From a virus, in the IMG/VR virus record IMGVR_UViG_3300045972_000791, positions 3,154 to 67,153 of that record: 64,000 bases of DNA, one strand, 5' to 3'. This document shows positions 3,656 through 54,195 of this stretch, one piece after another (within the stretch, counting starts at the first letter, position 1; the number at the start of each line of letters is the position of its first letter). The notes below the pieces were generated by a model, which worked only from the letters and a program-made list of their open reading frames with translations, did not search any database and was not told the origin of the DNA. The translations under genes and the position numbers were made by a program.

Positions 3656-3689
3656 AAGAGTCTCCTTTAATTTATTTAGTAATCTAAAG

Positions 3690-3699
3690 TATAATATGT
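3690..3699 (-). promoter_or_regulatory. Early-type promoter motif ACATATTATA
   Basis: Identical 10-mer also at 6269-6278 and 49599-49608; resembles AR9/phiKZ early TATATTA motif. Confidence 0.55.
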
Positions 3700-3704
3700 G
3701 TATG

Positions 3705-3781: not shown

Positions 3782-4021
3782 TCACGAAATCTTCCTCTTA
3801 AATATGATTACTTTAGAAGTAATACCTTTAGTAAATGGGTTATCGCATCTCACATACCATATTGCACCATTTGAATCTCTCACTATAAAATCATTACTAT
3901 GAGAAGGTACAAATACAATATCTGAATTAGGAAATGCATCATTCACACCTTCTGCTTTATATGTTGTTGAACATCCAAGCATTCCTAATATTAATAGCAA
4001 AAGTATAATTACAGTTTTCAT
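3782..4021 (-). CDS. Putative lipoprotein
   Basis: MKTVIILLLLILGMLGC: signal peptide II with lipobox Cys. Confidence 0.7.
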   Translation of the reverse strand: MKTVIILLLLILGMLGCSTTYKAEGVNDAFPNSDIVFVPSHSNDFIVRDSNGAIWYVRCDNPFTKGITSKVIIFKRKIS

Positions 4022-4022
4022 T

Positions 4023-4394
4023 TTAATCCTTCCAATAGTATGGTGGTGGAACTTCTCTAAAATCACTAAATGTCTGAAATGAATTACTTTGAGTAATCAA
4101 AAATCCCTCTGGCACTTTAGCTCCTAATCTCATCTCATTACAATATAAACCAGTTAGTTCATCCTTACCATTAACTGTCTTACCTACAACCATCCACATT
4201 CTTCCATCTTGAATGATTATATCGCCAAATCCTCTTTCTTTAATAATTTTAGCATTAGCATCTTTCCATCTCTGAAAATCTTTATTCTGCTTTTCCTGTC
4301 TCTTATCACTATGAACAAAACCAAGTATAAGTATTACTATAAATAATAATATTAATGATAACATCATTGGCTTGAATAGATCTAACTTATGCAT
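4023..4394 (-). CDS. Membrane-anchored hypothetical protein
   Basis: N-terminal hydrophobic helix LSLILLFIVILILGF. Confidence 0.65.
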   Translation of the reverse strand: MHKLDLFKPMMLSLILLFIVILILGFVHSDKRQEKQNKDFQRWKDANAKIIKERGFGDIIIQDGRMWMVVGKTVNGKDELTGLYCNEMRLGAKVPEGFLITQSNSFQTFSDFREVPPPYYWKD

Positions 4395-4396
4395 TT

Positions 4397-5251
4397 TTAC
4401 TCCTGTACAATAGATGGATGAAGTAACATACCACTTTTTGAAACGTCGCTATACTCTACAATGATCTTTAATTCAACTTTCTTCCAGATAATATCTTCTT
4501 TATTATACTTTTTACCATCCGGAAATGAAGGTATAAGACTATATATACTCTTTCGAGTATCATCATTTAGCCCACCTGTACCCACTTTACCTACATAACT
4601 ACCAAATTCATCAGTAATAGCAAAGGATGCAAGATAATTAGATTCGACTCTAAATCCAACTATATTACAAGTCTTCTTTGTCCTCACCCTCACTTTGATC
4701 CATCTCTCGTCCCGAGTGCCATTGGAGTATATAGACTCCCTCTGCTTTCCCACAATACCTTCCATACCCTGCTTCTTGGCTCGTTCGAATAACTCGTTCG
4801 AATCCAAGTGGCTCTTTGGGGTGAAAGCCATCTCGTTGCTTAGGATATTCAGTCTCTCTTTTAGGGGGAATTTTCTTATGTCTTTCCCCTTGAATATCAA
4901 TATATCGAAGGGTATGAACGTAGCCGGCCTTGTCTCTGCCCATATCTTCGCCTTATTTCCTTTCACCCCTATTCTATTTTGAATAAGGGAAAATTGGTCT
5001 TTCATATTCTCATCTAGTACAATTAACTCTGAATCAACAAGAGAGTTTTTTGGTAAGTACATTCCATTAACTTCAGGAAATGATTCAGTAAGTCCACTAA
5101 CCCCTCTACCAAAAATCTCTCTTTTGTTATCTAATGATGATACTCCACCTCTAACCCCATTGTATTTATAAAACCAAAGATATCTATCATCTATGAATGG
5201 TTCTCTCTTTAGTAATAATAACATCGGATCATAGATAAAACTACTCACCAT
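4397..5251 (-). CDS. ATP-dependent DNA ligase (LigD/LigC-like ligase core)
   Basis: Motif I KYNGVR, VDSEL, FDIL...PLKERL, EGIVGK...S.Y..G.R...WIKV, OB-fold YVGKVGTG...LLHP. Confidence 0.88.
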   Translation of the reverse strand: MVSSFIYDPMLLLLKREPFIDDRYLWFYKYNGVRGGVSSLDNKREIFGRGVSGLTESFPEVNGMYLPKNSLVDSELIVLDENMKDQFSLIQNRIGVKGNKAKIWAETRPATFIPFDILIFKGKDIRKFPLKERLNILSNEMAFTPKSHLDSNELFERAKKQGMEGIVGKQRESIYSNGTRDERWIKVRVRTKKTCNIVGFRVESNYLASFAITDEFGSYVGKVGTGGLNDDTRKSIYSLIPSFPDGKKYNKEDIIWKKVELKIIVEYSDVSKSGMLLHPSIVQE

Positions 5252-5486
5252 ATTCTACCTTCAGATAGTTCTTACCAAATTCTGCACGAATTTCATTAAG
5301 CATTTCAGGTATACTTTCTTCAGGAACGTCTCCACTAATATCTCTAACCATTGTAGTAAGATCAGTTCCAGCTCCATGTTCTTCAAATAAATATTTATCT
5401 GCAATAGGTCTAAATTTTTTATCAACACCAATAATTCCAAGATTCTGATCCAACTGAAAGTAGATATAAATATTTTTATTAGCCAT
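5241..5486 (-). CDS. Hypothetical protein
   Basis: Probable start ATG 5486, overlapping the upstream stop. Confidence 0.55.
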   Translation of the reverse strand: MANKNIYIYFQLDQNLGIIGVDKKFRPIADKYLFEEHGAGTDLTTMVRDISGDVPEESIPEMLNEIRAEFGKNYLKVEYGE

Positions 5487-5938
5487 TAGATTATCCCTTT
5501 GTCTGTGCAAGTTTTACATGCACAGACACCTTTACCGCTATTAGGTGTAACGTACATAGGTTGGATAGATTCACATCGATCACACCATGCATCAACACCA
5601 GTTATACGATTGATTTTTATTTTACTATTTACATATTTACTGCATCCCGTTGCATGATTACCTTTTACTGTACTACCACATTCATCACACATTTTATACA
5701 TTCTCAAGTACCTCCAATGAGTTACCTTTTGATCTTCAGGCATTCCACCAGATTTAGATAACTCTTTACCAAATCCCTTGATATGAGTAAAGCTTATTTC
5801 ACTACAGTAGAACCACCCATTCGAATGGTAATATCCAACATAGTCTAAACCATTAATTTTAAACAAAACTACATCTGATACTAGGTTATCTATTTTAGTT
5901 ACTTCAGGCAACCCACTTTTTACTGATTGAAATTCCAT
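5486..5938 (-). CDS. Hypothetical protein (DUF551-like N-terminus, Cys-rich C-terminus)
   Basis: SVK.GLP...VTHWR pattern followed by CxxC pairs. Confidence 0.6.
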   Translation of the reverse strand: MEFQSVKSGLPEVTKIDNLVSDVVLFKINGLDYVGYYHSNGWFYCSEISFTHIKGFGKELSKSGGMPEDQKVTHWRYLRMYKMCDECGSTVKGNHATGCSKYVNSKIKINRITGVDAWCDRCESIQPMYVTPNSGKGVCACKTCTDKGII

Positions 5939-6234
5939 TACTTTTCTCCTTTCATTTTTGCTATATAATTTTTATAGCTTTGAACATAAACATATATAAT
6001 TCCTAGATTTGTCATATATGCTACACTAATAACTACATAACTTTTATTCTCATCAAAACTAACTACTTCTCCTGATCGTGGAATAATAACGTGCATTCCT
6101 TTTGATATATCATGAGTTAACAGTGTTATATTTTCATCTTCATAATCTAAATCCAACATCCTCGTAACTTTGTTGAGTTCATCGATATCAACATCCACAT
6201 AATTGATCTCTGTATAATTCTGATAAAGTTTCAT
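5938..6234 (-). CDS. Hypothetical protein
   Basis: GGAGG Shine-Dalgarno and early-type promoter motif upstream. Confidence 0.65.
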   Translation of the reverse strand: MKLYQNYTEINYVDVDIDELNKVTRMLDLDYEDENITLLTHDISKGMHVIIPRSGEVVSFDENKSYVVISVAYMTNLGIIYVYVQSYKNYIAKMKGEK

Positions 6235-6268
6235 TTTTATCCTCCCGATATTTAATTAATTACTCAAT

Positions 6269-6278
6269 TATAATATGT
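6269..6278 (-). promoter_or_regulatory. Early-type promoter motif ACATATTATA
   Basis: Just downstream of a terminator, upstream of 6234. Confidence 0.55.
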
Positions 6279-6282
6279 ATAT

Positions 6283-6322
6283 AAAAAAAGAATGGGAGTT
6301 ACCCCATTCTCTTTTTTTTTTT
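6283..6322. terminator. Intrinsic terminator after ku
   Basis: A7-GAATGGG...CCCATTC-T-tract. Confidence 0.75.
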
Positions 6323-6328
6323 ATATGA

Positions 6329-7129
6329 TTAATCCACACTCCCCATCAAAGCAGCTAAGAGGTCATTAGGGTCACTCTTCTTAGCACTAGCTTTAGGTGC
6401 TTTAAGAGCTTTACCTGCAACTCTAGCTTGGATTCCTTCTAACAGAAGTTCTTCATACTCATCAGTGAAGTCTTCTGCAGAGAACTCTTTATAAGTCTTA
6501 GATGCTATGATTTTCTTCATAACACCCATCATCTGTGATTCAACTTCAGTAGTTATATCTTCAAAGAATGGAGTTGAATCTTTGATAAGACCAATACGAT
6601 TAAGAGTCCATAGAACGATACCGCCTTCTTGTGGTACGAGAGCAACTACTTGCTCTTTTCTTGTCATTACATACTTCCCAAAACCAAACATTTCAGTTTC
6701 TTCAAGTGCAGCAAGAAGGAGTTCATAAGCAGTCTTTCCTTCTGGTTCAGGTACTACAAAATATGGAACACCTAAAATCATACCATCAAGAAGTTCAAGA
6801 CTAAAGAACTTTGTTATATTGATAGACTTATCAACATCTGGACAGATTGAGTCGAGGAATTCCTCTTCAATGAGAGTCCACTTCTCAGGACTCCCTTCAA
6901 ATCCCTTTAGAGATTTGCTACGGTCAACAGTACCGTGAGTAGGACATTTGTACTCTTGTTTCAATTTATCATGGCAGTCAGGACAGATCATATTAAGAGC
7001 GACCTTTTCTGACTCCTTTGACGTTACAGCACGGTATCCTTTCACCGGAATGGTTAACATTCCTAGTGAAATGAATCCACTGAAAGAACTGCGACCTAAT
7101 GATTTTTTCTTTTTAGCAGGTTTAGCCAT
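6329..7129 (-). CDS. ku: Ku DNA end-binding protein (NHEJ)
   Basis: RS.FSGFISLGMLTIPVK.Y.A, KGFE, PYFVVPE...AYELLLAALEET, FTDEY...L...I..R, DLLAAL..S: bacterial Ku pattern along its whole length. Confidence 0.92.
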   Translation of the reverse strand: MAKPAKKKKSLGRSSFSGFISLGMLTIPVKGYRAVTSKESEKVALNMICPDCHDKLKQEYKCPTHGTVDRSKSLKGFEGSPEKWTLIEEEFLDSICPDVDKSINITKFFSLELLDGMILGVPYFVVPEPEGKTAYELLLAALEETEMFGFGKYVMTRKEQVVALVPQEGGIVLWTLNRIGLIKDSTPFFEDITTEVESQMMGVMKKIIASKTYKEFSAEDFTDEYEELLLEGIQARVAGKALKAPKASAKKSDPNDLLAALMGSVD

Positions 7130-7340: not shown

Positions 7341-7749
7341 AAATTATATGAGGATGACCATCTTCAAAAGCTCTTAAAGCTAAGTCTACACTAGAACTTT
7401 TGATATTGACTGCTTCTGAAGGTTTCATGATATCCCAGTGGATTGGACCTTCAGCGTTGTAATACATGTTTTCAATCTCAGTATCAAAATTATCTGCTTC
7501 AATGATATGGACATGTCCTTCATATCTTACACAGTCGCAATCCATACCACCCTCTACAATTGCAATCTTTCCTTCCTCACTACACTCTATAACTCTCTTC
7601 TTATTGTACAGCATGTCTTGGATTTCGTCATGTAGTCTTTCAATTTTTGGTGCGTGTAATTTATTCAAAAACTTAAGGTACTTTGTTTCAGATACAGATT
7701 TCTTTAAAACTTTTTTCATGTCTGTGTAACTAGCCATCGTATCCTCCAA
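7330..7749 (-). CDS. Hypothetical phage protein
   Basis: 139-aa ORF with GGMDCDC...AEGP...AFEDGHPH, in operon. Confidence 0.65.
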   Translation of the reverse strand: MEDTMASYTDMKKVLKKSVSETKYLKFLNKLHAPKIERLHDEIQDMLYNKKRVIECSEEGKIAIVEGGMDCDCVRYEGHVHIIEADNFDTEIENMYYNAEGPIHWDIMKPSEAVNIKSSSVDLALRAFEDGHPHIIYGD

Positions 7750-8248
7750 ATAATTGAGCTGTAGTTCCAGCTTTTTCTCTTAGTGCATTTAGTGAAATAT
7801 CAAAACGAGTGACATCTAATCCTTTTCTACGAAGATAACCCATATTGTCTTCACTATCGTCATACCGTTCAATGTATACGACTCTGATAATTTTTGTTTC
7901 TTCAGCAATTAAATCTGTACATCTTCTGCATGGTGAATGAGTGACATACAAAGTAGCGTCATTTGTGGGAAGACCGTAGTCTCTACAGAATTTAATTGCA
8001 TTAGCCTCTGCATGAATCTCATTCGCTAAAGACCAATTATGGTGATCAGGATATAGTAATTCTCCCGACTCCATTAGATCTTTACAATGAGGTTTACCTT
8101 TAGCCGTACCATTTCTACCTGTAGAAAGGATACGATCATTTCTTACAAGAACACTTCCAACTTGGTGTCTTGCACATGTGGACAATTCAGATACAATCAT
8201 TGCAATTCTTAGATTGATCTGGTCTTTTAATATCTGTCTTTCATTCAT
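7730..8248 (-). CDS. dCMP deaminase
   Basis: STC.R.QVG.V.V....I.STG.NG, HAEANAI, TLYVTHSPC..C zinc-binding motifs. Confidence 0.92.
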   Translation of the reverse strand: MNERQILKDQINLRIAMIVSELSTCARHQVGSVLVRNDRILSTGRNGTAKGKPHCKDLMESGELLYPDHHNWSLANEIHAEANAIKFCRDYGLPTNDATLYVTHSPCRRCTDLIAEETKIIRVVYIERYDDSEDNMGYLRRKGLDVTRFDISLNALREKAGTTAQLFGGYDG

Positions 8249-8667
8249 ATCGGTCGCCTAATTTGAGACATTTGATTTTGAATATTTGTCTGCAACTGCA
8301 TTATCTGTGAATTAAAAATCATGTCCATTGACCTGATCATTGCTCCACTCATTCCCATACTAATAACTTCTTTTACAGCAATCATTACTTCTTCTGGATG
8401 TTCATCAACATACTCTTTAACTACCTTATTAACTGTAGGCTGAACACATTCTTTAAGAATTTCTTCTAAAAGAGTTGGTCCGTCTATTGTTTTGTAATAG
8501 TCTCTTGGATCTTTAATTCTACTCCTTGTAAAGAATACATCCTGCATTCCTTTATCAACTAGCTTCTTGATATCTTCATCAGATAATAAATCTCCAATAC
8601 TATCCTTAATCCTATCTTTCATCTTCTGTTCAAATGTCTTACTCTCTGCTGGTAAATTTTCACTCAT
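8245..8667 (-). CDS. Hypothetical protein
   Basis: 140-aa ORF with ATGA overlaps. Confidence 0.65.
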   Translation of the reverse strand: MSENLPAESKTFEQKMKDRIKDSIGDLLSDEDIKKLVDKGMQDVFFTRSRIKDPRDYYKTIDGPTLLEEILKECVQPTVNKVVKEYVDEHPEEVMIAVKEVISMGMSGAMIRSMDMIFNSQIMQLQTNIQNQMSQIRRPI

Positions 8668-9173
8668 AACTTTCTCCCTTTCTTTTCAATTATACTTCTT
8701 AGACTGATTGGTGCATACAAATGTTCCATAAATATTAGATGATGTTTTAAAGTTCCACCTCCTGTGTGCCTAGCATTAATATTATTATGGAGATGACCAT
8801 GGATATTTAAATCATAATCTCCATCTATTGCTGGACGATGAGTCATAAGAACTCTCTTACCAAATATATTAAGTAATATTTCGTCACCTACAAAATCCCA
8901 TCCATGCTCAAGATACCATGATGAACTTTTCTTATCATGGTTTCCTCTTACTAACCACATTTTACCTTTACATGATTCTCTTAATCGAAGATTCCAATAC
9001 TCATCCTTATAAAATGCTACATCTCCAAAGTGTATTAATACGTCATTAGGCATGACTGTTTTAGTTATTTTGCTGAGTGTAGTCTCTTCGAATCCAATAG
9101 GTCGTCCTCCATATTCTTCTGTATGAAGGAGATTGTGTCCTAAATGAGTATCTGCAACACCCCAATAATTCAT
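8664..9173 (-). CDS. Calcineurin-like metallophosphoesterase
   Basis: DTHLGH, GD, GNHD, HGHLH motifs. Confidence 0.9.
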   Translation of the reverse strand: MNYWGVADTHLGHNLLHTEEYGGRPIGFEETTLSKITKTVMPNDVLIHFGDVAFYKDEYWNLRLRESCKGKMWLVRGNHDKKSSSWYLEHGWDFVGDEILLNIFGKRVLMTHRPAIDGDYDLNIHGHLHNNINARHTGGGTLKHHLIFMEHLYAPISLRSIIEKKGRKL

Positions 9174-9197: not shown

Positions 9198-9209
9198 AAC
9201 AACTTATTA
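9198..9209 (+). promoter_or_regulatory. Late-type promoter AACA-N6-YR
   Basis: AACA ACTTAT TA upstream of 9251. Confidence 0.65.
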
Positions 9210-9250
9210 ATAATATCTATTTAAAATAAGAGAAGATATAAGGAGTTATT

Positions 9251-10210: not shown

Positions 10211-10624
10211 CTAATGTGTTACATCAATGTTTTTATATAACTTTAATAATTCCATTAAATTAGTAACAGTAGCACCTGCAACTGAATTATTAATATGATA
10301 AACATAATAAGTATCAGCTGCGTCTTTATATTCAAATTCAGTAGGGAGTTTACTCTTCCAATTCTCAATTTGAGATAAACCACAATCTAATGATATAAGT
10401 GCTACAGTATAATCTTTACTACGATCAGATATTGAATATACACCATCGATACAGTTAAGTATCCATTTTAAAGTTATCAAGTTATTTTCTAATTCAATAG
10501 CATCAAACTCTTGAACTATCTCTTGGAAGGTGGGGCTATCATCAGCATCACTACCGAGAAGATCATCAGTAAAACTAATTAAGTTAGCTAATAATTCTTT
10601 ATACCTATTATTCACTAGTTTCAT
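10211..10624 (-). CDS. Hypothetical protein
   Basis: 137-aa ORF, end of operon before palindrome. Confidence 0.65.
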   Translation of the reverse strand: MKLVNNRYKELLANLISFTDDLLGSDADDSPTFQEIVQEFDAIELENNLITLKWILNCIDGVYSISDRSKDYTVALISLDCGLSQIENWKSKLPTEFEYKDAADTYYVYHINNSVAGATVTNLMELLKLYKNIDVTH

Positions 10625-18731: not shown

Positions 18732-19535
18732 ATGAGAAAATATGAGTCTATAATTGGTAAACAATTTAATAGATTAACTGTATTATCTGAAGACAAACTT
18801 GTTGGTAAACAAAGATATTTCAATTGTAAATGTGAATGCGGTAATATTACCTCAGTCCGTATGTCTAGATTAAAAAATAAAAACAAGCCAGCTATATCTT
18901 GTGGTAAATGTAAAGATAGTATTATGGAAATAAAATTAGTTGGAAAGAAATTTGGGATGTTAACCATATTATCTCTTGATTTCAATAGTCCTATGAGTGG
19001 GATTAGAGGTGGTCCACCGAGAAGAGTTATTTGTAAATGTGAATGTGGAACAATAAAATCAATACCGTTATATTATTTAAAAGATACAAAATCTCCCACA
19101 TTATCATGTGGATGTTATAGAGATTTTATAAAAACTAGTCATGGAATGAGTAAAACACGTATATATAGTATTTGGCAGGGAATGAGAGATAGATGTAATA
19201 ATCCAAAAAATGTTTCATATCCTAATTATGGTGGTAGAGGTATATCATATTTAGATAAGTGGGAAGATTTTGAAGAGTTCTATAGAGATATGGGTGATCC
19301 TCCAACTGATAAACATGAACTTGATAGAATTGATAATGATAAACATTATACAAAGAAAAACTGCCGATGGTCTACTCATAAAGAACAGCAGAATAATAAA
19401 CGTAATAGTCATTTTATTGAATTTAATGGAAAGAAACAAACTCTTACTCAGTGGTCAGAAGAAACTGGTATAAAAAAGGAAACATTACGATATCGGTTAT
19501 ATAATAATTGGCCACTGGAAAAGGCTCTTTCATGA
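18732..19535 (+). CDS. Free-standing HNH homing endonuclease
   Basis: G..F.RLTV...CKCECG...SCGC repeats; W.GMR.RC.NP..Y..YGGRGI; LDRIDN...Y...NCRW....Q.NN. Confidence 0.88.
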   Translation: MRKYESIIGKQFNRLTVLSEDKLVGKQRYFNCKCECGNITSVRMSRLKNKNKPAISCGKCKDSIMEIKLVGKKFGMLTILSLDFNSPMSGIRGGPPRRVICKCECGTIKSIPLYYLKDTKSPTLSCGCYRDFIKTSHGMSKTRIYSIWQGMRDRCNNPKNVSYPNYGGRGISYLDKWEDFEEFYRDMGDPPTDKHELDRIDNDKHYTKKNCRWSTHKEQQNNKRNSHFIEFNGKKQTLTQWSEETGIKKETLRYRLYNNWPLEKALS

Positions 19536-20284
19536 TAGATCATCTTACCAAAAATGTATCTTTTTTAAAGATGCACAGATATCTTAAAGAAAAAGGTATT
19601 AAAAATAATAAATTCTTTCTAAAGCTAAATGACCCTGATCTGTTAGGAGTAGATCCTCACTCTCCAGATCTAACTAAAATACAAAAAGCAAAGATTCTAA
19701 AAGAAATTATAGGTAATCCATGGTATTTTTATAGATCCGTTATAATGATTCCCGTCCCAGGTGGTAACAAAGCCTTTGAATTGCATCGTGGTAACTTAGC
19801 TATGCTATGGGCAATGCATATGAATATTAAATCATGTGTACTATTGCCACGACAGAACTATAAGACTATTTCTACAATATGCGGTCTTCTATGGATATAC
19901 TACTTTGGAACCACTAACAGTCAGATGATCTTTAGTAATAAAGAGCTAAAAGACTCAAGACTTAACCTTAAACGATTTAAAGATATTAAAAATCTTCTTC
20001 CAAAGTATCTAGTTCATGAAGATAAATTGGATAAAGATAATATTGACTCTGTGGAACATAAGAAAAGAGGAAATGCTGTAGGAATTCTATCTGCTCCTAG
20101 AGACGAAGACCAAGCCGATAGGATGGGAAGGGGTATGACCGTTCCCATTGTATGGTATGACGAATTTGCATTCTTAAAATATAACTCTGTAGTATATGCC
20201 TCAGCTGCACCTGCACAAGGTCAAGCATCTATAGAAGCTGCAAATAATAAAAGACCATACTTTACTACAGTTACTACTACGCCT
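19532..20284 (+). CDS. Terminase large subunit, exon 1 (ATPase)
   Basis: Walker A LPRQNYKT, Walker B WYDEFAF, motif III TTTP; ATG 19532 overlaps the HNH stop. Confidence 0.88.
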
Positions 20285-20381
20285 AAATACTATTGGGCCG
20301 TCTGGATGAGAGTTCAGATGATAATCTCTTTAATTGCTGGAACATCCCTATGGGAAAATCAGCAGCGAAAATTCTACTACT

Positions 20382-20393
20382 AACATATCATTA
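20382..20393 (+). promoter_or_regulatory. Late-type promoter inside the intron
   Basis: AACA TATCAT TA upstream of the intron endonuclease. Confidence 0.6.
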
Positions 20394-20416
20394 ACAAAAT
20401 TGATGTGGAGGTAGTT

Positions 20417-21193
20417 ATGAGAAAAACTCATGAAACATTTGTATCTGAAGTATTTCAATTACGTGGTAACGAATATAAGGTTATTAGTAAATACACTACT
20501 AATCGAAATAAAATTCGTATGCTACATAATAAGTGCGGTATGGAATACGAAGTTGCACCTACTAATTTTCTAGGCTCTCCAAAGAAGAAAGGTATAGAAT
20601 GCCCATTTTGTACAGGTGGAGGTTCAGGTGCAGATAGACAACGAATGTCTGAATGGTTTAAGATTAAGGTAAAGAATAAAGTAGGAACAGCATACACAGT
20701 TATAGAAGAATATAAAGGTACTCATAAACCAATTGATATTCTTCATAATGATTGTAACAGAATTACTAAAGTTAGCCCAACTAATTTCTTAAAGAATACA
20801 GCTTATACAAGGTGTGTTCATTGCCAAAGAGAAGAAAATATCTCCCAAGGTGAGAAGATAATTAAAGATTGGTTGGAAACTAACGATGCTGATTTTACCT
20901 TTCAATGGTTTTGTCCAGAATTAAATAAAGAACAAAAAAATCATCGATATTCATTTGATTTTAGAGTGGAGCTGAATGATGGTTCTTTTGCACTTATAGA
21001 GTATAATGGTGAATTGCACTATAGACTATGGCGAGGAAATAGTGAATCTGCTGTTAAAAAATTAGAAAATACTCAAAAAAGTGATATTCTTAAAAAGGAA
21101 TATTGTCAAGATAATAATATACCTTTTCTGGTTATTCCATATACAAATCTTTATCAAATATCAACTATTCTAGATAAGTTTTTCCAAGAATGA
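20417..21193 (+). CDS. Intron-encoded endonuclease (Zn-ribbon repeats plus Vsr/EDxHD-like nuclease)
   Basis: H..CG...CPFC and H..C...CVHC repeats; SQGE, FDF...IEYNGELHY, D..K...C; GGAGG Shine-Dalgarno before ATG 20417. Confidence 0.8.
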   Translation: MRKTHETFVSEVFQLRGNEYKVISKYTTNRNKIRMLHNKCGMEYEVAPTNFLGSPKKKGIECPFCTGGGSGADRQRMSEWFKIKVKNKVGTAYTVIEEYKGTHKPIDILHNDCNRITKVSPTNFLKNTAYTRCVHCQREENISQGEKIIKDWLETNDADFTFQWFCPELNKEQKNHRYSFDFRVELNDGSFALIEYNGELHYRLWRGNSESAVKKLENTQKSDILKKEYCQDNNIPFLVIPYTNLYQISTILDKFFQE

Positions 21194-21363
21194 CGTTCAA
21201 CGACTAGAGCGAAAGCTCGTACACTACAAGCTAATGGTAGTGGAAATGGGAGACATCCTAACTCTATGAGAAGGATGAAGATATAGTCTACTCTGCACGG
21301 TAACATGCAGCTGCTAGGAAATTGCTAGCGGGATAGAAGTTGCGACTCTATTCGAATACAAGG

Positions 21364-22536
21364 AATAATATTGACGTATTAACTGGTTTATATTGTAAGA
21401 CTGAGATTATGGATAAAGCATGTCCATTTATCGAAGAGATGTATGATTGGAGTAGGGAAAAGGTTGTTACATACCTAGATAAAAACTCAGAAAATGACTT
21501 TGTATATATCGAATACTCTTATAAAGAATTAGGTAGAAGTGAAGCTTGGTTTAGGACGCAATGTCGTCAGTTGCTTGGAGATACGCTTAAAATCAAACGA
21601 GAAATACTTCTTGAATGGACTAAAGCCTCAGATACTTCTCCATTTACAGAAGATCAACTTCAGGCTATAGATGATAAACTACTAGAAGAGGTTGGAACTA
21701 TAACATTAAGAGAATACTATACTCTCCATCTTATAGATTTCATAAAGAAAGATAAAGTATATCTAGTTGGTCTTGACCTTGCAGGTGGTCTTGATAGAGA
21801 TGAATCAGCTATAGTTATCGTTGATCCAGATACTTCTCTACCAGTTGGTTTCTTTCATAATAATAAAATAGATACTGATGAACTATATCTATTAGCTCAA
21901 GAGCTTATTGAAAGCTACTTACCTAGATCAATTCTTATACCTGAAAGAAACTCTTATGGTTTACCATTCTGTCAACGATGGATGAAATCTAAATTAGAGA
22001 AAAATTTATTCTTTCATTCAAGAGAGAAAGCAGAAAAAAGAGTTGGTCAGGCAACATCTAAAACTAGACTTAAAGTATATGGTATCGATACTACTGCTAA
22101 GTCTCGTGATTTAATGATTGACATTCTTAAAAAGGATGTTGTAGAACATCCGGAGTTCTTCAGAATAAAGAAGCTATATGATCAAGTTCGCAATCTTGAG
22201 AGAACTAAGAATGGAAAGATAGAACACTCTTCACATAGTCATGACGATATTCTATTTGCATATTTAATGTGTAGATATGCCATGTGGTATCATATGGATA
22301 TCTTAGGTAAATATTTCCTAAAGGTAAATATCCAGAGAAGAAATGTATCTCATATGGAAATAGTTGGATCTAATAATGAAAGAGCTGTAGAAAGTAGAGA
22401 ATTATTAATGCAACCTATAATGCAACCAATTGAAAGTCCCTTAAGTACAATGACAGCTACAGGTGGACTTAAATTGGCAAAAAGATCTAACTTAATAAGC
22501 GTAATTAATTTAAATAATGATGATGGAGGAAGATAA
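21364..22536 (+). CDS. Terminase large subunit, exon 2 (nuclease)
   Basis: GLDLAGG..RDES, IPERNSYG, HDDILFA RNase H-fold motifs. Confidence 0.88.
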   Translation, partial: NNIDVLTGLYCKTEIMDKACPFIEEMYDWSREKVVTYLDKNSENDFVYIEYSYKELGRSEAWFRTQCRQLLGDTLKIKREILLEWTKASDTSPFTEDQLQAIDDKLLEEVGTITLREYYTLHLIDFIKKDKVYLVGLDLAGGLDRDESAIVIVDPDTSLPVGFFHNNKIDTDELYLLAQELIESYLPRSILIPERNSYGLPFCQRWMKSKLEKNLFFHSREKAEKRVGQATSKTRLKVYGIDTTAKSRDLMIDILKKDVVEHPEFFRIKKLYDQVRNLERTKNGKIEHSSHSHDDILFAYLMCRYAMWYHMDILGKYFLKVNIQRRNVSHMEIVGSNNERAVESRELLMQPIMQPIESPLSTMTATGGLKLAKRSNLISVINLNNDDGGR

Positions 22537-33576: not shown

Positions 33577-33847
33577 TCTCGCTATCTAATAAATCAATTA
33601 TTTTTTGTTCAGAAGGGTCTTCACACCAAAAGGCATTTTTCAGCTTAAATATTTCTTTCTCTAAACGGACAATGCGATTAGAAGCGCATAACACTGTTCT
33701 AATACATTTAGCACTTCCATCTTTCATAATAATACTTATTGATCCGCAGTTATACTTTACTGAATGGGTATATTTATTACCCCCTATTGTAAGGGGGCTT
33801 TTCCTGATTTCTAATAGCTCAGATTTACATGATGGGCATATATCCAT
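33551..33847 (-). CDS. Small Cys-containing hypothetical protein
   Basis: CPSC...CGS; start overlaps the polymerase stop. Confidence 0.55.
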   Translation of the reverse strand: MDICPSCKSELLEIRKSPLTIGGNKYTHSVKYNCGSISIIMKDGSAKCIRTVLCASNRIVRLEKEIFKLKNAFWCEDPSEQKIIDLLDSENVMGGKNG

Positions 33848-35586
33848 TACACAACCTCCAATAGTTCTTGTAAGTCTGGTAAATTAAAATATTTTTTACC
33901 AGTAGCAATAAAATCTTTAGCTTGAATAGAATCAATAATTTTAGGTATTTCATCATTGAGTTTATTCTCTAATTTTAGTTGACTTTTATTATTATATACA
34001 TATACATCCTCAAACTGTTCAACTAAGAAAGCCTTACCAATCTGAGTAAATGAATCAATATTAAAACCTTGAATAATACTTGGATAGAGAGATGCAAGGT
34101 CAAGGTCACAAGTCTTTTCAAATATCTTATTTGATTTGATACCTAAGACTGGAATGCCTGTATGTGCAAGAAGTTTAGGATTAGCAACAAATGCACCACG
34201 AAACTTTTTCTTTGCATCATCTTTATCTTCATCTTCTTTAGATTTCCATTCATCACTACCATAATCCTGATTACGATTATTAGATAGCACGTATCCTTGG
34301 TCTCTAAAGAATCTATCAGCCATATTACGAAGACATATTGTCTTTGTCATAGCTTTGTTCATACGAGTTTCAGTCATCAAACTCAACTGATAAATAAGAT
34401 CAGTATCACCAATCTTCTTTTCAATCAAGTAACATCCAATAACGTCCATCGCATTATATTCCATAAACTTTAAGAAGTTAGAGTATGGAAATTTCTTCAT
34501 ATCATCAACAACTTCATCCTTACTCATACTAAGTTCTTCAGTAAGTACTGCATCTAACATGTATGAGTCTTTTTTCTGCATTGACTTACGAATAACTGCA
34601 TACTGAATCATTTGGTCAAGAAATATTACATCTGAAGTAATCTGTAACTGATCTTTCTTTTCAGATATATCTTTCGCTCTAGTATCAGTATAGTAATATA
34701 CCTGTTTATAATCTACTTCTTTTGGACACATTATAAGAGCAGGAATACCGCCTAGAATCTTTATTCTATTTATAACAGTTTGACCGTCAAATGAAAGGTT
34801 CCATGCATGAAGTATATCTGGTTTACATCTTTCATTAAGAAGCTTAAAGAATGCTTTAATAAGGTCTAATTCTTTATCAAAGAACTCAATTTCTATCTCT
34901 AGATTTGGACACTCATTTTTAAACTTCTTTTGAATAGTTTTAGTATACTTTTCAATTTGAGTATCTTCAAATATCCCAATCAATGTATTCTTTGGATTCC
35001 TCAGAACGAATTGATATAATATATTCTCTTGTTGATCATAATATCCTATAAGGTTGATAGGACTAGGTGCTTCTTCAGCAATAGGAAAACCTGGTATATT
35101 GGATGAGTCAACCTCGATATCCCAAAAACCTTTAGTAAGAGATGCAGTTAGATCAACTTCAGACTTATATTTAGATAGATATCTACTTATAGTGTGATCA
35201 CTAATATCCACATCTGAACCATGTAGAATTGGATCAAGGTGTAACTGTTTCAACTTACCAAAGTGTTTCTCTTGCAGACATGCCTCATAAAAGTCCATCT
35301 CACCAAGATATTTAGCTATCTCACGCATATACTCCCAATACTTACAGGTGACAGGAAATGTATCTTCAATAGGTACAAATAACGGTGGTGGATCCAAATA
35401 CTGGTCTACTTTATTCTGTTTAGTGACTCTAAAAGTTATAGTAGGATCAGCTATGAATCTCATTCTCTTTTCACCATCGATTTTTTCAACTATATATAAA
35501 CCTGTATGTTTCAGAGGTAATTTATTTCCATCTGAATCTTTACCGCCTCTTACTGTTAAAACATTGATCAACTGACGAACTGGCAT
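33847..35586 (-). CDS. Family B DNA polymerase, N-terminal half (3'-5' exonuclease plus motif A)
   Basis: ExoI WDIEV, ExoII AWNLSFD, ExoIII YNAMDV, FRGAFV..P, DLDLASLYPSII...NI. Confidence 0.9.
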   Translation of the reverse strand: MPVRQLINVLTVRGGKDSDGNKLPLKHTGLYIVEKIDGEKRMRFIADPTITFRVTKQNKVDQYLDPPPLFVPIEDTFPVTCKYWEYMREIAKYLGEMDFYEACLQEKHFGKLKQLHLDPILHGSDVDISDHTISRYLSKYKSEVDLTASLTKGFWDIEVDSSNIPGFPIAEEAPSPINLIGYYDQQENILYQFVLRNPKNTLIGIFEDTQIEKYTKTIQKKFKNECPNLEIEIEFFDKELDLIKAFFKLLNERCKPDILHAWNLSFDGQTVINRIKILGGIPALIMCPKEVDYKQVYYYTDTRAKDISEKKDQLQITSDVIFLDQMIQYAVIRKSMQKKDSYMLDAVLTEELSMSKDEVVDDMKKFPYSNFLKFMEYNAMDVIGCYLIEKKIGDTDLIYQLSLMTETRMNKAMTKTICLRNMADRFFRDQGYVLSNNRNQDYGSDEWKSKEDEDKDDAKKKFRGAFVANPKLLAHTGIPVLGIKSNKIFEKTCDLDLASLYPSIIQGFNIDSFTQIGKAFLVEQFEDVYVYNNKSQLKLENKLNDEIPKIIDSIQAKDFIATGKKYFNLPDLQELLEVV

Positions 35587-35611
35587 GTGTTCTCCTTTTG
35601 TTCAGTATATA

Positions 35612-35653
35612 CGATACTATGTTGTCTATATTTTTAAATTAAACATTTTATTA
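35612..35653. promoter_or_regulatory. Divergent pair of AACA-N6-YR promoters
   Basis: Minus 35612-35623 AACA TAGTAT CG (polB N-half); plus 35642-35653 AACA TTTTAT TA. Confidence 0.6.
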
Positions 35654-35686
35654 TGTTATTCATTTTATGGTGTGAGAGAGAAAACT

Positions 35687-36409
35687 ATGTCAGATGACAA
35701 TCTTTTTGAAGAAATGTTAACTGCTATGGAAAGGGAAGGACAAGCTACTGAAGAACTGTATACTGAGTTAAAAGAGCATTATGATACTATAAAGCTTAAT
35801 AGTCGTAGGATGCAGGGCAGCTTAACATTCCTTTCCAAACAAGCCGAAAATCTTATAGCTTTAAGACAGGCTAATCAACAAATTATTAAAGCAATGGTGG
35901 ATATGAAACACAAACAGTTTGGTAATACTATGAAGACTAAGATGTTATCTGTTAAACAAGAAACGGCTGATGAAGATGGTATTCCATTTAAAGTTGTTAA
36001 ATATCTTATAGATGCACTTAAAGTAGACTCTAATAATATAATGAGTATAGAGGGTGAATTAGTCAATAACCCTATTACTGATGATGATAGATTATTAGAA
36101 GGTAGATTAAGTGAATTGTCTGATGAAGAGACAACTGAAGACAGCATCATTCCAGCTGAAATTGATGAATCTACTATTGAACTAGTATGTGATGAACTAG
36201 GTAGTTATCATATAGTTGCTAATGGATATATTATATGTGATGATGATTATGATCTACCTAAAGATTCACCTACCTATGATGTAGGTAAGCATGGGGAGTT
36301 GAGGGCTTTTAATTCTGATGGAAAAGAGATTAAAATAGTCAGGTCTGATTCATTAGTATTTAGAGAGCCTGAAGAGGATGGTGAAATAGATGAGGAAGAT
36401 GATGACTGA
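35687..36409 (+). CDS. Hypothetical protein (coiled-coil N-terminus)
   Basis: Start re-assigned to ATG 35687, downstream of the promoter motif at 35642. Confidence 0.65.
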   Translation: MSDDNLFEEMLTAMEREGQATEELYTELKEHYDTIKLNSRRMQGSLTFLSKQAENLIALRQANQQIIKAMVDMKHKQFGNTMKTKMLSVKQETADEDGIPFKVVKYLIDALKVDSNNIMSIEGELVNNPITDDDRLLEGRLSELSDEETTEDSIIPAEIDESTIELVCDELGSYHIVANGYIICDDDYDLPKDSPTYDVGKHGELRAFNSDGKEIKIVRSDSLVFREPEEDGEIDEEDDD

Positions 36410-37046
36410 AGGATCTCTCCCAGAATTCTTATGGAGGGGTAAAGCTGCAGATATTATAAAGAATACAAAAATAGTAACTAAAAATGAATTGATATCTTTT
36501 ATGGAACCTGGAGATTTAATCTGCTCCAATACTCCTGATAGCAAGATAGTATCATACATGCATAATCTGTCTGGAATGTCAACTAAGATGGCTATGGGTA
36601 TTCCTTACTCTTCAATTAAATTAGTTGCAACTGACGGTATGTTAATAGGTTATGGTCTTAGGAAATCTCTTCCAACTAATGTAGGTCTTGATAAGACAAC
36701 TATTAGTGGATATGTTAATAAAGCTAGAGAGATTATTCTATTAAAACCAAAAGTACCCAAAGAAGATAGACTCGATGTTATTAAATGGATGGAAGAAAGA
36801 TTAGGAGTTCCATTTAATGTGAATATGCTTAATAGATCATTATTAGCTAGAGTAGTAAATAGCAAACCCAGTGATGATAAAGTGAAAGCTAGATTAAGTG
36901 AGAAAGTATCACTTTTCTGTTCTAACATAATTGCATATGCATTCTTATCCACAGGTCATAGATTAGTTGTGAATCCAGAGAATGCTTGGCCTGTAGATTT
37001 TATAGAATCAAACAATATTACACCAATAAGTCGAATACATCAATAG
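36390..37046 (+). CDS. Permuted papain-like NlpC/P60 (YiiX/YebB-like) protein
   Basis: EPGDLI...; LG.PF; LFCS..IAYAF...WP.DF. Confidence 0.65.
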   Translation: MRKMMTEGSLPEFLWRGKAADIIKNTKIVTKNELISFMEPGDLICSNTPDSKIVSYMHNLSGMSTKMAMGIPYSSIKLVATDGMLIGYGLRKSLPTNVGLDKTTISGYVNKAREIILLKPKVPKEDRLDVIKWMEERLGVPFNVNMLNRSLLARVVNSKPSDDKVKARLSEKVSLFCSNIIAYAFLSTGHRLVVNPENAWPVDFIESNNITPISRIHQ

Positions 37047-37054
37047 GAGGGATT

Positions 37055-37375
37055 ATGAACAAAGTAGCTCAATATGTAATAGATCGTCTTAAAGAACCAT
37101 CTTCATGGCGTGGTCTTATTATGGTAGGTACATCTACTGCAAGTATGTGTGGTGCAAAATACGATCTATCCACAGATCAAATTGTAGCAATTATTACTAC
37201 TGGTGTATTCGTATCTGGTATGGTAGGTAGTTTAATTCCAGATAAAATGAAAGCATCAGGTAAAGGTGTGATTGAAACTGTAACTGACAGTATCAAAGCA
37301 GTTGGTGATTCAGATGACGCAGTTAGAGATAATTCTGTAGGTATTAAAGTAATTGAAGTATTTGATAAAAAGTAG
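37055..37375 (+). CDS. Holin-like small membrane protein
   Basis: RLKEPSSWRGLI plus two hydrophobic segments; GGAGG before ATG 37055. Confidence 0.55.
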   Translation: MNKVAQYVIDRLKEPSSWRGLIMVGTSTASMCGAKYDLSTDQIVAIITTGVFVSGMVGSLIPDKMKASGKGVIETVTDSIKAVGDSDDAVRDNSVGIKVIEVFDKK

Positions 37376-37445
37376 TTACCGTATTCAGTGGATTTTTTAT
37401 TTAATATTATTTATATAGAATAAATAAAAATCCATTGGAGGAATT

Positions 37446-37583
37446 ATGCAAATCAAAGACCTTGCTGGCCGTAAAAATGTTGTAAAAATGGTTAAATATA
37501 TATGTCATAAGTGTGGTGTAGGTGGTCTCTTTCCCAAGGTTAAGAAAGTTGTGACCTGTAGTTATTGTGGTCACGCATCTTAA
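37446..37583 (+). CDS. 45-aa zinc-ribbon protein (below the ORF-track cutoff)
   Basis: GGAGG-N5-ATG; MQIKDLAGRKNVVKMVKYICHKCGVGGLFPKVKKVVTCSYCGHAS; followed by a terminator. Confidence 0.75.
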   Translation: MQIKDLAGRKNVVKMVKYICHKCGVGGLFPKVKKVVTCSYCGHAS

Positions 37584-37603
37584 CCATCTGTTTCAAATAC
37601 ATT

Positions 37604-37642
37604 ATGCTCTATTCCAATTAAGGAATAGGGCATATTTTTTTT
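37604..37642. terminator. Terminator
   Basis: ATGCTCTATTCC...GGAATAGGGCAT plus T-tract. Confidence 0.75.
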
Positions 37643-38455
37643 TTAATCCTTACCATATAATGCTTCTTCTACGGACCATCCTCTTTTTAGACGACCACGA
37701 ATAGTGCTACGATGTATACCTACTTCTTCTCCCCACATAGCTAATGATTGAATTTTTCCATTATACTCAATATTATGATTGTTAGATCTATTATTTTGCT
37801 GTTCTTTCATTGTAGACCATTTACAGTTCCTCTTTGTATAATGACCATTACTTTCTATTCTATCTAATGTATGTTTATCTGTAGGTGGATCACCCATATC
37901 CTTATAGAATTCTATAAAATTTTCCCATCTAACTGCATAAGATACACCTTTTCCACCATAATTAGGATTATTAGAGTTACATCTATCTTTCATCATAACC
38001 CAAATATGATAAATACGAGTACCCTCCATTCCATGTTTTGTATTGGCTTTAGATAACATTTCTTTTCCATAGCATCCACATGATTGTGTTCGTCCAAGAT
38101 TTAAACGACTTCCATCTACTTCTTTAGTATTTCCGCAATCACATTGACACATATAATGCCAATGTAAATTTTTTAATATAGTGGGATTTAATACTATTAA
38201 TCTCCCAAATCTTCTACCAATCATTTTACTATGGGTTCTAATGTTTCTTGCTGTATTTTCTTCTTTAATTCTTTCTTTATTAAAGCAACCACATGATGAT
38301 GTTTTACCGGATCTAAGACGAGTTCCATTATATTCTGATTCATTTCCATTACAACTACATCTACATTTATAATACAATTCCCCATATCTGTTATTAGCTT
38401 GTTTTAAAACAGTTAACCTTCCAAATACTTTTCCAATCATATTTATTTTTGCCAT
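37643..38455 (-). CDS. Free-standing HNH homing endonuclease
   Basis: Same family as 18732; start re-assigned to ATG 38455 behind GGAGG. Confidence 0.88.
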   Translation of the reverse strand: MAKINMIGKVFGRLTVLKQANNRYGELYYKCRCSCNGNESEYNGTRLRSGKTSSCGCFNKERIKEENTARNIRTHSKMIGRRFGRLIVLNPTILKNLHWHYMCQCDCGNTKEVDGSRLNLGRTQSCGCYGKEMLSKANTKHGMEGTRIYHIWVMMKDRCNSNNPNYGGKGVSYAVRWENFIEFYKDMGDPPTDKHTLDRIESNGHYTKRNCKWSTMKEQQNNRSNNHNIEYNGKIQSLAMWGEEVGIHRSTIRGRLKRGWSVEEALYGKD

Positions 38456-38467
38456 ATTGTACCCTCC

Positions 38468-38479
38468 TAATAAACTGTT
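38468..38479 (-). promoter_or_regulatory. Late-type promoter
   Basis: AACA GTTTAT TA upstream of HNH. Confidence 0.65.
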
Positions 38480-38491
38480 ACTCAAGAGGAA

Positions 38492-38527
38492 GTTAGTTCC
38501 CCATACTAAAAAGTATGGGGAACTAAC
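38492..38527. terminator. Palindrome/terminator
   Basis: GTTAGTTCCCCATACT-AAAA-AGTATGGGGAACTAAC. Confidence 0.65.
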
Positions 38528-38533
38528 ATAAGA

Positions 38534-38884
38534 TTAATGCATAGGGGAATGTCTACGTGTAAGATATACACGAACTTGTGCCTTGGCCTTCTGTCCATAC
38601 TTGCGTTGTATCGCAGCACGGAAGCTTTTCATTTTAAGATAGTGGAACAACATTTTAGAATAGAGAGGATCTCCACCCTGTTTTGCAATCAAGTTAGCTG
38701 CACGAGCAACCATACGCTTGATCTTAAGTTCTTTCTTGACTTTGTACTTACCAGTGATCATGCTACCTTCACCAAGCATTTCAAGGCTTTTGCAAGCGAT
38801 GTCATGTGCCTGATCAAGAATTGCAAGACTCTCACTGGTGAATTCAAATTCCTCATTAGCATTAGCTTCATCATTCAGAAACAT
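38534..38884 (-). CDS. Small virion/head protein (acidic propeptide, basic core)
   Basis: Late promoter motif; LGE-G site separates acidic and basic halves. Confidence 0.55.
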   Translation of the reverse strand: MFLNDEANANEEFEFTSESLAILDQAHDIACKSLEMLGEGSMITGKYKVKKELKIKRMVARAANLIAKQGGDPLYSKMLFHYLKMKSFRAAIQRKYGQKAKAQVRVYLTRRHSPMH

Positions 38885-38949
38885 GTGTATCTCCTTTACC
38901 TATTGTTTTTATGAGACCTATATTGTCTCGGTGCGCAACACAGTGCGTC

Positions 38950-39019
38950 TAATAGATTGTTATAGTTTATAATGAATTGTTTATATTATACCCTTAAAAT
39001 ATTTGACAACAGATTATCA
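38950..39019. promoter_or_regulatory. Divergent pair of AACA-N6-YR promoters
   Basis: Minus 38950-38961 AACA ATCTAT TA; plus 39008-39019 AACA GATTAT CA (polB C-half). Confidence 0.6.
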
Positions 39020-39040
39020 CTATTCGAAAAGGAGTAATAT

Positions 39041-49572: not shown

Positions 49573-49598
49573 AGGGGGAGTAGTTAATAATACTAAGT

Positions 49599-49608
49599 TA
49601 TAATATGT
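49599..49608 (-). promoter_or_regulatory. Early-type promoter motif ACATATTATA
   Basis: Heads the HNH/sigma-like/primase/RNase H run. Confidence 0.55.
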
Positions 49609-49612
49609 ATAG

Positions 49613-54072: not shown

Positions 54073-54095
54073 AATTCCCCCTAATTTCAGTTAAT

Positions 54096-54160
54096 TAACT
54101 ATTTGTTATAAAAGTCAATTAAACTAGAATTAGAAAGAATTTTATTGAAACATATAATTG
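54096..54160. promoter_or_regulatory. Divergent pair of AACA-N6-YR promoters
   Basis: Minus 54096-54107 AACA AATAGT TA; plus 54149-54160 AACA TATAAT TG. Confidence 0.6.
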
Positions 54161-54195
54161 TATAAAGTCACATTATAGCAAGGGGTATTGATCTC

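Follow-up and report, generated by a model that had tools for sequence, protein, structure and literature searches.

A Ku protein and a stand-alone LigD-type ligase as an apparent minimal end-joining or end-protection module of an AR9/PBS1-like jumbo phage

A stretch of 64,000 nucleotides (nts) of viral DNA (the window; bases 3154-67153 of the 67,153-bp IMG/VR record IMGVR_UViG_3300045972_000791, all coordinates below being positions in the window) carries the genes of a bacterial-type Ku protein and of a complete two-domain ATP-dependent DNA ligase. The presence of the two genes on one strand within 3 kb, as described in an earlier note made from the DNA letters, was confirmed: both open reading frames (ORFs) are on the minus strand and span 2.73 kb end to end. 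The two proteins are intact, their catalytic residues show purifying conservation, and the pair is rare in catalogued phages. The evidence tips slightly towards a minimal phage-borne module in which Ku would bind phage DNA ends and the ligase would seal ligatable breaks. This end-joining or end-protection module was apparently acquired by a jumbo phage of the AR9/PBS1 type and apparently kept in two relatives. Bacterial Ku-LigD end joining and phage Ku proteins are already known; what distinguishes the present case is the replicon that hosts the genes, the minimal composition of the pair, the basic tail of Ku, which appears to have moved to the other end of the protein, and the changed ligase motifs. 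The two genes are the following.

6329..7129, minus strand: Ku, 266 amino acids (aa); family profiles, matches to solved chains, AlphaFold2 (AF2) model with Foldseek, alignments
4397..5251, minus strand: stand-alone LigD-type ATP-dependent DNA ligase, 284 aa, with nucleotidyltransferase (NTase) and OB domains; profiles, AF2 model, motif tables

Identity of Ku and of the ligase

The product of the upstream gene was recognised by Pfam PF02735 (E 8e-25, 88.3 bits for a cut-off of 25), by PHROG 4873 'Ku-like DNA end binding' (E 2.4e-19) and by the NCBIfam model TIGR02772 Ku_bact, for which it scored 168.9 bits, above the cut-off of 150, with residues 13-265 aligned to positions 1-259 of the 259 in the profile. 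Its sequence matches the solved bacterial Ku chains 9vnq, 8v53 and 9i91. The AF2 model (predicted local distance difference test score, pLDDT, 73.3) shows the beta-barrel and bridge fold, and its top Foldseek matches were B. subtilis Ku (9vnq, E 5.9e-15) followed by M. tuberculosis Ku (9ig8, 9i91, 8v53). Family and fold suggest that the protein would form a homodimeric ring threading DNA ends.

This Ku had been described as full-length, which is correct for the core and for the minimal C-terminal motif, DPNDLLAALMGSV, and not for the extended basic C-terminal tail, which is absent. Within the motif region, D256, L257, A259, L261 and S264 are invariant or nearly so across 11 Kus. Tails were compared in an alignment of 58 Kus, consisting of a phage-type trio (the window protein and its relatives P0002 and P0003) and 55 others. 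The number of residues past the minimal motif is 0, 5 and 0 in the trio, whereas 54 of the 55 other Kus have an extended tail of 8-112 residues with at least 5 Lys/Arg. The phage-type proteins carry instead an N-terminal tail of 12-13 residues with 4-5 Lys/Arg (MAKPAKKKK in the window protein, K6-K8 being invariant); a long N-terminus is seen in just two further Kus, possibly as a start-codon artefact in each. The basic tail of phage-type Ku thus appears to have been relocated from the C- to the N-terminus. In B. subtilis Ku, the extended tail is reported to limit threading on DNA and the minimal motif to recruit LigD; the core of the same protein supports ligation by the isolated ligase domain (PMC13201618). 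The C-terminus of M. tuberculosis Ku is described as contacting both the polymerase and the ligase domain (PMC13717202). Together, this contact and the B. subtilis core data make it plausible that Ku could have a partner consisting of a ligase domain only.

A CxxC...CxxH arrangement in the bridge of Ku had also been pointed out. The residues are present (C49-P-D-C52...C62-P-T-H65) and align within the bridge of M. tuberculosis Ku, defined as residues 23-91 (PMC12784962). The same site reads CPDH...CSEC in P0003, and P0002 has a 15-residue insert. Among the 55 other Kus, HxxH...CxxC is found at this site in 11 and CxxC...CxxC in 1; the phage knuckle is thus one version of a site that recurs among Kus and not a novelty. 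Metal binding by the knuckle is a prediction, and the word zinc has 0 occurrences in three cryo-electron microscopy papers on bacterial Ku.

The second gene encodes a complete enzyme with NTase and OB domains, in agreement with the LigD-like ligase core reported before. The protein matches Pfam PF01068 DNA_ligase_A_M (E 3.7e-20, 72.9 bits, cut-off 26.2) and PHROG 114, and its best NCBIfam model is TIGR02779, the ligase domain of non-homologous end joining (NHEJ), with E 3.8e-37. For the OB domain, the Pfam model PF04679 gave 17.1 bits, below its cut-off of 27.5, and the domain was found in the AF2 model built with 60 relatives (pLDDT 94; predicted template modelling score, pTM, 0.87), where it forms a C-terminal beta-domain; both domains of the model superpose on DNA-bound human Lig1 with a template modelling (TM) score of 0.80-0.81. 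Foldseek matched the model to archaeal ligases and to the M. tuberculosis LigD ligase domain (E about 1e-18). Comparison with the relatives favours the 284-aa start over the 275-aa gene call (P0059), because a conserved YDPM precedes Met10.

The earlier reading of motif I as KYNG in place of KxDG was borne out, as K29-Y-N-G-V-R aligns to the KYDG of archaeal ligases. The motifs of the ligase are given below, together with counts over 151 aligned sequences of relatives, window included.

Ligase motifs, minus strand (motif tables): I KYNGVR; III DSE; IIIa FDIL; IV EGIVGK; V WIKVR
Motif I, third position: Asp 143, Asn 6, Arg 1
Motif III, middle residue: Gly 142; Ser in the window clade
Motif V, second basic residue: Lys 125, Arg 13 (including the window), other 13
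Arg of motif VI 'LRxP': present in 138
RxDK-like motif: present in 32

The protein ends in LLHPSIVQE and has no RxDK. Like P0060, P0063 and P0064, it stops 8-10 residues past the would-be start of LRxP, without the Arg of this element and without RxDK, a loss of motif VI that went unmentioned in the earlier note. A small membrane-protein gene begins 3 nt past the ligase stop, so that the short end is native and not a truncation. In the four-member phage ligase clade, K29, G32, R34, D73, E75, D116, E164, G165, K169 and K186 are invariant at 36-60% identity, and K29 is invariant in the 60-sequence as well as in the 4-sequence alignment; invariance of the catalytic residues at such identities is the mark of an enzyme under selection.

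The motif I Asp is absent in 7/151 sequences, 6 of which are also without the LRxP Arg (window, P0060, P0063, P0064, P0068, P0081); among the 143 ligases with the Asp, one full-length sequence is without the Arg. A quick tree placed the double change in the window clade (support 0.99), to which a sister sequence attaches weakly (0.58), and, as a separate case, in P0081. This paired loss of Asp and Arg in at least two lineages is suggestive, not proof, of the compensated loss of an ion pair, and hints at functional coupling between motif I and motif VI.

Replicon, rarity and relatives of the pair

The replicon was assigned through its structural and replication genes. PHROG matches included a major head protein, a tail sheath, a portal-like protein, a prohead protease and pieces of a multisubunit RNA polymerase (RNAP), as well as two DNA-polymerase pieces, an HNH-interrupted large terminase, a primase, an RNase H and a GroEL-like chaperonin. 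The hallmarks of AR9/PBS1-like (Takahashivirus-like) phages are thus found, namely head protein, sheath, split multisubunit RNAP and HNH-interrupted genes. The capsid protein is 39% identical to those of Bacillus phages AR9 and PBS1, and a search with it returned 21 matching records, all of them AR9-like jumbo phages (Bacillus, Staphylococcus, Listeria, Yersinia); because of this identity and of matches solely to AR9-like phages, the replicon is considered a distant AR9-like jumbo phage and not a close relative of these phages. Of the earlier designation as a jumbo phage, the phage identity is shown by capsid, sheath, portal, split RNAP, split terminase and GroEL, and the jumbo size is probable from the IMG/VR completeness estimate of 26% for the 67,153-bp record, corresponding to a genome of some 250 kb. 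The record carries the label 'provirus' in IMG/VR, although neither host genes nor an integrase turned up among the 44 large ORFs scanned or in the 3 kb outside the window, and the genes scanned are all phage-like. The 3 kb to the left of the window encode a superfamily 2 (SF2) helicase with HA domains. Near-identical DNA is present in three pond-metagenome runs from three studies, one of them a possible source of the record, and the Ku-ligase block is intact there.

In five complete AR9-like phages, a hidden Markov model (HMM) search found Ku in 0/5, an ATP-dependent ligase in 0/5 and an NAD-dependent ligase in 5/5, so that the pair looks like an accessory gain. The topoisomerase gene and three neighbours in the Ku unit gave no AR9-like matches; since these neighbours are without counterparts in AR9-like phages, the whole Ku-ligase block is regarded as lineage-specific cargo.

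The rarity of the pair was assessed in a phage catalogue of 50,697 records. With the window Ku as query, tblastn gave no match at E 1e-5 in this catalogue; an actinobacterial Ku query matched 88 records, 87 of which are mycobacteriophages. The ligase search returned 42 records, none above 32% identity, which are Rhizobium/Sinorhizobium phages, SPbeta-like Bacillus phages and one Psychrobacillus phage. The mycobacteriophages Omega (cluster J) and Corndog (cluster O), invoked earlier as phages that carry Ku and rely on host LigD, likewise encode a bacterial-type Ku, and their Ku genes were confirmed; an ATP-dependent ligase (PF01068) was found in 0/2, and they reportedly rely on host LigD. They differ from the present phage in being 70-110-kb high-GC actinophages, and their Kus have no detectable similarity to the window Ku by tblastn at E 1e-5. 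Small phage ATP-dependent ligases that are 25-31% identical to the window enzyme occur in phiLM21, PPF1 and RHph_TM3_3_3 (Rhizobium/Sinorhizobium), in Psychrobacillus phage PVJ1 and in SPbeta (LigB/YoqV). In contrast to the window, Ku was found by HMM search in 0/5 of the phages with these nearest catalogued ligases, and the matches of the SPbeta-type ligase span the NTase part alone (residues 9-187). The co-occurrence search in phage genomes that had been proposed found both genes in 0/12 of the catalogued phages examined. No published phage with both Ku and ligase was found in a literature search, most subscription journals being beyond its reach. Within the data set of one preprint, 11 phages have a Ku; the 11 viral Kus in OrthoDB all belong to phages of Mycobacterium or Streptomyces (PMC11936186), and a survey of 224 jumbo-phage genomes mentions Ku in its reference list only (PMC7824862).

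Relatives were sought among 5.8 billion proteins, for the ligase also by an exhaustive HMMER search. Identity of the Ku relatives was 61% for P0002 and 50% for P0003, and then dropped to 30%; for the ligase it was 59% for P0060, 44% for P0063, 37% for P0064 and then about 30%. For P0002 and for P0060, the source is a single JGI contig of 7,615 bp in each case; for P0003 and for P0063, it is a single JGI contig of 2,405 bp. The equal lengths in bp, the same source and the parallel divergence (61/59% and 50/44%) suggest that Ku and ligase are co-located in two relatives. The three small ORFs that lie between the genes in the window cannot all fit on the 2,405-bp contig, because the two genes would fill about 1.6 kb; that one of these ORFs, ORF150, has no homolog besides itself is consistent with this. 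Scans of viral contigs with single proteins and with the Ku alignment did not find related contigs and gave one weak match (L002, 37% over 51 residues). Among the matches listed in a metagenome scan, two bacterial-type Ku loci (L003 and L004) were seen and not used further. Species-representative prokaryote genomes held no close relative of Ku or ligase, and the absence of phage-type Ku from the prokaryote genome contigs scanned means that no clue to the host was obtained.

More distant cellular relatives of the ligase are frequently associated with Ku. Among the best 80, at 26-34% identity, Ku was found within the flank covered in 48/80 and within 500 bp in 42/80. These relatives comprise 66 long multidomain ORFs and 14 short stand-alone ones, and 10 of the 14 stand-alone ligases adjoin Ku.

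Organisation of the Ku-ligase locus

The minus strand carries every gene from 9173 down to 244. The features of the locus, besides Ku and the ligase, are the following.

9203..9220, minus strand: AR9-early-promoter-like element ATAGATATTAT-N6-G, 29 nt upstream of the metallophosphoesterase-to-Ku unit
8664..9173, minus strand: calcineurin-like metallophosphoesterase, first gene of the Ku unit (Pfam Metallophos_2, E 1.1e-6)
7730..8248, minus strand: deoxycytidylate (dCMP)/cytidine deaminase, in the same unit as Ku (Pfam dCMP_cyt_deam_1, E 1.4e-18)
6289..6310, no strand assigned: terminator-like GC hairpin between an A-run and a T-run (sequence reading and scan)
6263..6280, minus strand: AR9-early-promoter-like element ATACATATTAT-N6-G, 28 nt upstream of the ORF98-ORF150-ORF89-ligase unit
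5241..6234, minus strand: three small ORFs (98, 150 and 89 aa) between Ku and ligase (ORF list)
5486-5938, minus strand: ORF150, an orphan 150-aa protein with 8 Cys in its C-terminal half (CxxC...C...CxxC...CxCxxC)
4023-4394, minus strand: small protein that begins with a hydrophobic helix, encoded immediately downstream of the ligase (sequence)
3782-4066, minus strand: ORF overlapping the preceding one, with a lipoprotein-like signal ending LGMLGC (sequence)

Ku and ligase, described earlier as a kit, do not form one operon. The terminator-like hairpin begins 19 nt past the Ku stop codon and divides the Ku unit from the ligase unit, the ATACATATTAT-N6-G element sits immediately after it, and the three intervening ORFs are not conserved. 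In our reading, a first early-type unit would consist of the metallophosphoesterase, ORF140, the dCMP deaminase, two small ORFs and Ku, and a second would consist of ORF98, ORF150, ORF89, the ligase and the small membrane and lipoprotein-like ORFs. At position 6311, one extra T is present in the intergenic homopolymer beside the hairpin in contigs of all three pond-metagenome runs; it is probably a homopolymer length error or a variant, and coding is unaffected.

The assignment of the locus to an early region, also made previously, has as its basis the AR9-early-promoter-like elements: one precedes each unit, and early timing of expression may be supposed from them. The AR9 early promoter consensus is given as AAATATATATTAT-N6-G (PMC5312081). 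The exact consensus, with up to 2 mismatches, was not enriched in the window (21 matches for 22.65 expected), nor were sigma-70-like promoters (34 found for 50.9 expected). The refined motif ATA[C/G]ATATTAT-N6-G occurs in 6 copies in the window for 1.56 expected, and 0/100 shuffles reached 6; this repeated element resembles the early promoter of the AR9 virion RNAP. Five of the 6 copies recovered by the motif scan are on the minus strand.

3684-3701, 6263-6280, 9203-9220, 48502-48519 and 49593-49610, minus strand: ATA[C/G]ATATTAT-N6-G
10601-10618, plus strand: ATA[C/G]ATATTAT-N6-G

ORF98, ORF150 and ORF89 are tightly packed with mutual overlap; they matched no known family in Pfam, PHROG, NCBIfam and PADLOC searches, and conservation was not detected. 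ORF150 was considered as a conserved third component of the module and rejected, its homolog search having returned only itself; in an atlas structure search all its scores were below 0.9, and its N-terminal half is weakly DUF551-like. PADLOC gave 0 matches among 10 proteins of the Ku-ligase block. The metallophosphoesterase shows a weak likeness to TIGR04123 PdeM (E 7.5e-8, 32 bits, cut-off 150), PdeM being a nuclease of bacterial ligase-associated damage-response operons; the protein could be a DNA-end processor or a nucleotide phosphatase partnering the neighbouring dCMP deaminase. The ORFs at 4023-4394 and 3782-4066 could be early genes of the superinfection-exclusion type.

Elsewhere in the window, the GroEL-like chaperonin gene is located at 49613-51364 on the minus strand (PHROG 5725, E 7e-108). 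At least six genes for HNH or homing-type endonucleases are present (18732-22536, 33847-40963, 48718-49530, 53338-54942); two of the HNH/homing genes split the large terminase, and one lies between the two DNA-polymerase pieces, which are on opposite strands. With at least six such genes, many self-made double-strand breaks are possible.

End joining, end protection and the fate of phage DNA

In the reading that we favour, Ku would be made from an early-type promoter and, as fold and family suggest, would form a ring on free phage DNA ends. The basic N-terminal tail would grip DNA as the C-terminal basic tail does in bacterial Ku, and the minimal C-terminal motif, together with the Ku core, would recruit the stand-alone LigD-type ligase of the phage, which would seal ends that are already ligatable. 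Sealing would be limited to such ends because no polymerase or phosphoesterase module is present: neither the LigD polymerase (TIGR02778) nor the phosphoesterase (TIGR02777) module had a match in the 67-kb record, which covers about 26% of the genome. The self-sufficiency proposed earlier holds for gene content, in that the phage encodes its own Ku and ligase; joining would be restricted to clean ends by the lack of these modules in 67 kb. The benefit would be the survival of double-strand breaks made in phage DNA by host nucleases or by the many HNH endonucleases of the phage, and, secondly, linear ends would be shielded from host exonucleases. Prediction of a complex of 2 Ku chains and the ligase gave a median score of 0.34 for 0.22 in the control and was not used as evidence either way.

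The closest functional parallel is given by bacterial Ku and LigD (M. tuberculosis; B. subtilis YkoV/YkoU), with which the window shares the Ku family, its fold and the minimal C-terminal motif; the best family model of the ligase is the LigD ligase domain, and cellular relatives of the ligase adjoin Ku. Unlike bacterial LigD, the phage enzyme is ligase-only, has KxNG in motif I and has no motif VI; unlike bacterial Ku, the phage protein has its basic tail at the N-terminus; and unlike bacterial NHEJ, the genes are virus-encoded and in two transcription units. In the archaeal NHEJ of Methanocella paludicola, Ku, ligase (Lig), polymerase (Pol) and phosphoesterase (PE) are encoded separately. 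As in the window, Ku and ligase are separate polypeptides there and no multidomain LigD is involved; the archaeal system adds Pol and PE proteins, neither of which was seen in the 67 kb here.

Several findings weigh against Ku-dependent joining by this pair. The ligase scores 128.1 bits with TIGR02779, below the curated cut-off of 227.75, and is devoid of the motif I Asp and of the whole of motif VI (LRxP Arg and RxDK). Ku and ligase belong to different transcription units divided by the terminator-like hairpin, and three non-conserved ORFs intervene. The same-contig status in the relatives is read from equal bp and source, and no polymerase or phosphoesterase module accompanies the pair in 67 kb. 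Finally, with 74% of the genome unseen, the ligase could be replicative if a LigA-type enzyme is absent.

Alternatively, Ku could act alone in the manner of Mu Gam, protecting the linear ends of phage DNA, injected or in replication, from RecBCD/AddAB-type exonucleases of the host, with the ligase as an independent nick-sealing or replicative neighbour, an explanation that deserves attention and that we consider doubtful. The division into two units, the unconserved intervening ORFs and the early-type promoter-like element upstream of Ku speak for it. Omega and Corndog offer examples of phage Ku without phage ligase, the five phages with LigD-type ligases and no Ku offer the converse, and as no NAD-dependent (LigA-type) ligase was found in 67 kb, about 26% of the genome, the window ligase could be the sole ligase of the phage. 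Mu Gam, which binds ends and blocks exonuclease, is named in a preprint as a Ku homolog that acts with host ligase. Gam is likewise a phage protein of the Ku lineage and a potential protector of linear ends; the window protein differs from it in being a canonical bacterial-type Ku with a LigD-recruiting C-terminal motif and a ligase partner, and the retention of this motif, which recruits LigD in bacteria, argues against an action of Ku alone. So does the apparent presence of Ku and ligase together on both related contigs, with their parallel divergence. Moreover, the five AR9-like phages replicate with an NAD-dependent ligase and have no ATP-dependent one, which makes the window ligase look accessory, and its cellular relatives are mostly Ku-linked.

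It is quite unlikely that the ligase is crippled or dependent, that is, incapable of self-adenylylation with ATP and acting as a non-catalytic binder of nicks or ends, or in need of a partner or of another nucleotide donor. This possibility arises from the rarity of KxNG (6/151, with KxRG in 1/151) relative to Asp (143/151) in motif I, from the absence throughout the window clade of the LRxP Arg found in 138/151 and from a protein end that precedes RxDK. Motif VI is described as orienting the pyrophosphate leaving group and as indispensable for step 1 in ATP-dependent ligases (PMC4609770), which also counts against joining by the pair. In the M. tuberculosis LigD-ATP-metal complex, however, motif VI is reported to make no direct contact with ATP, and its role there is called unclear (PMC7470946). 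Fungal Trl1 RNA ligases have KxNG as their native motif I (PMC10946426), and as these enzymes are active, an Asn in motif I does not preclude lysine adenylylation. C-termini are often short in this ligase group, the RxDK-like motif being present in 32/151. That the remaining catalytic residues are all unchanged within the clade, at 36-60% identity, speaks for a functional active site, and the joint loss of Asp and Arg in 6/7 sequences and at least two lineages looks like compensation, not decay. The ligase is probably active, with an unusual step-1 chemistry.

A special case of the favoured reading, in which the pair would circularise the genome at entry and not repair accidental breaks, is very unlikely: the Ku genes of Corndog and Omega are confirmed and their products reportedly work with host LigD in just such a circularisation, but the genome ends of the present phage lie outside the 26% covered, and AR9-type phages are generalised transducers with headful-type packaging, whose terminal redundancy would permit circularisation by recombination without end joining.

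Minimal joining and shielding of phage DNA by Ku and ligase remains the reading that we prefer. A more ambitious version of it would have a virulent jumbo phage with its own Ku-dependent end joining, in which a re-engineered ligase, with a neutralised motif I Asp-motif VI Arg pair and with motif VI dropped, needs a Ku with a predicted zinc knuckle and an N-terminal gripping tail to close it on ends; the phage would thereby survive double-strand breaks from restriction, CRISPR, base-excision attack or its own homing endonucleases. We consider this version unlikely; if true, Ku-dependent phage end joining would be a kind of counter-defence not described for lytic phages. Catalogued phages with Ku reportedly borrow the host ligase, and phages with LigD-type ligases, as far as examined, are without Ku. 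A phage equipped with both proteins could reseal or protect its DNA in hosts lacking end joining of their own, and such a pair could be a route past DNA-cutting defences and past the endonucleases of the phage. The ligase clade, which has neither the motif I Asp nor motif VI, offers a natural test of two features that are supposed to be essential. With 266 and 284 aa and no polymerase or nuclease domains, the pair is about as small as end joining gets, and it is an attractive minimal model and a possible end-joining tool for bacteria without NHEJ.

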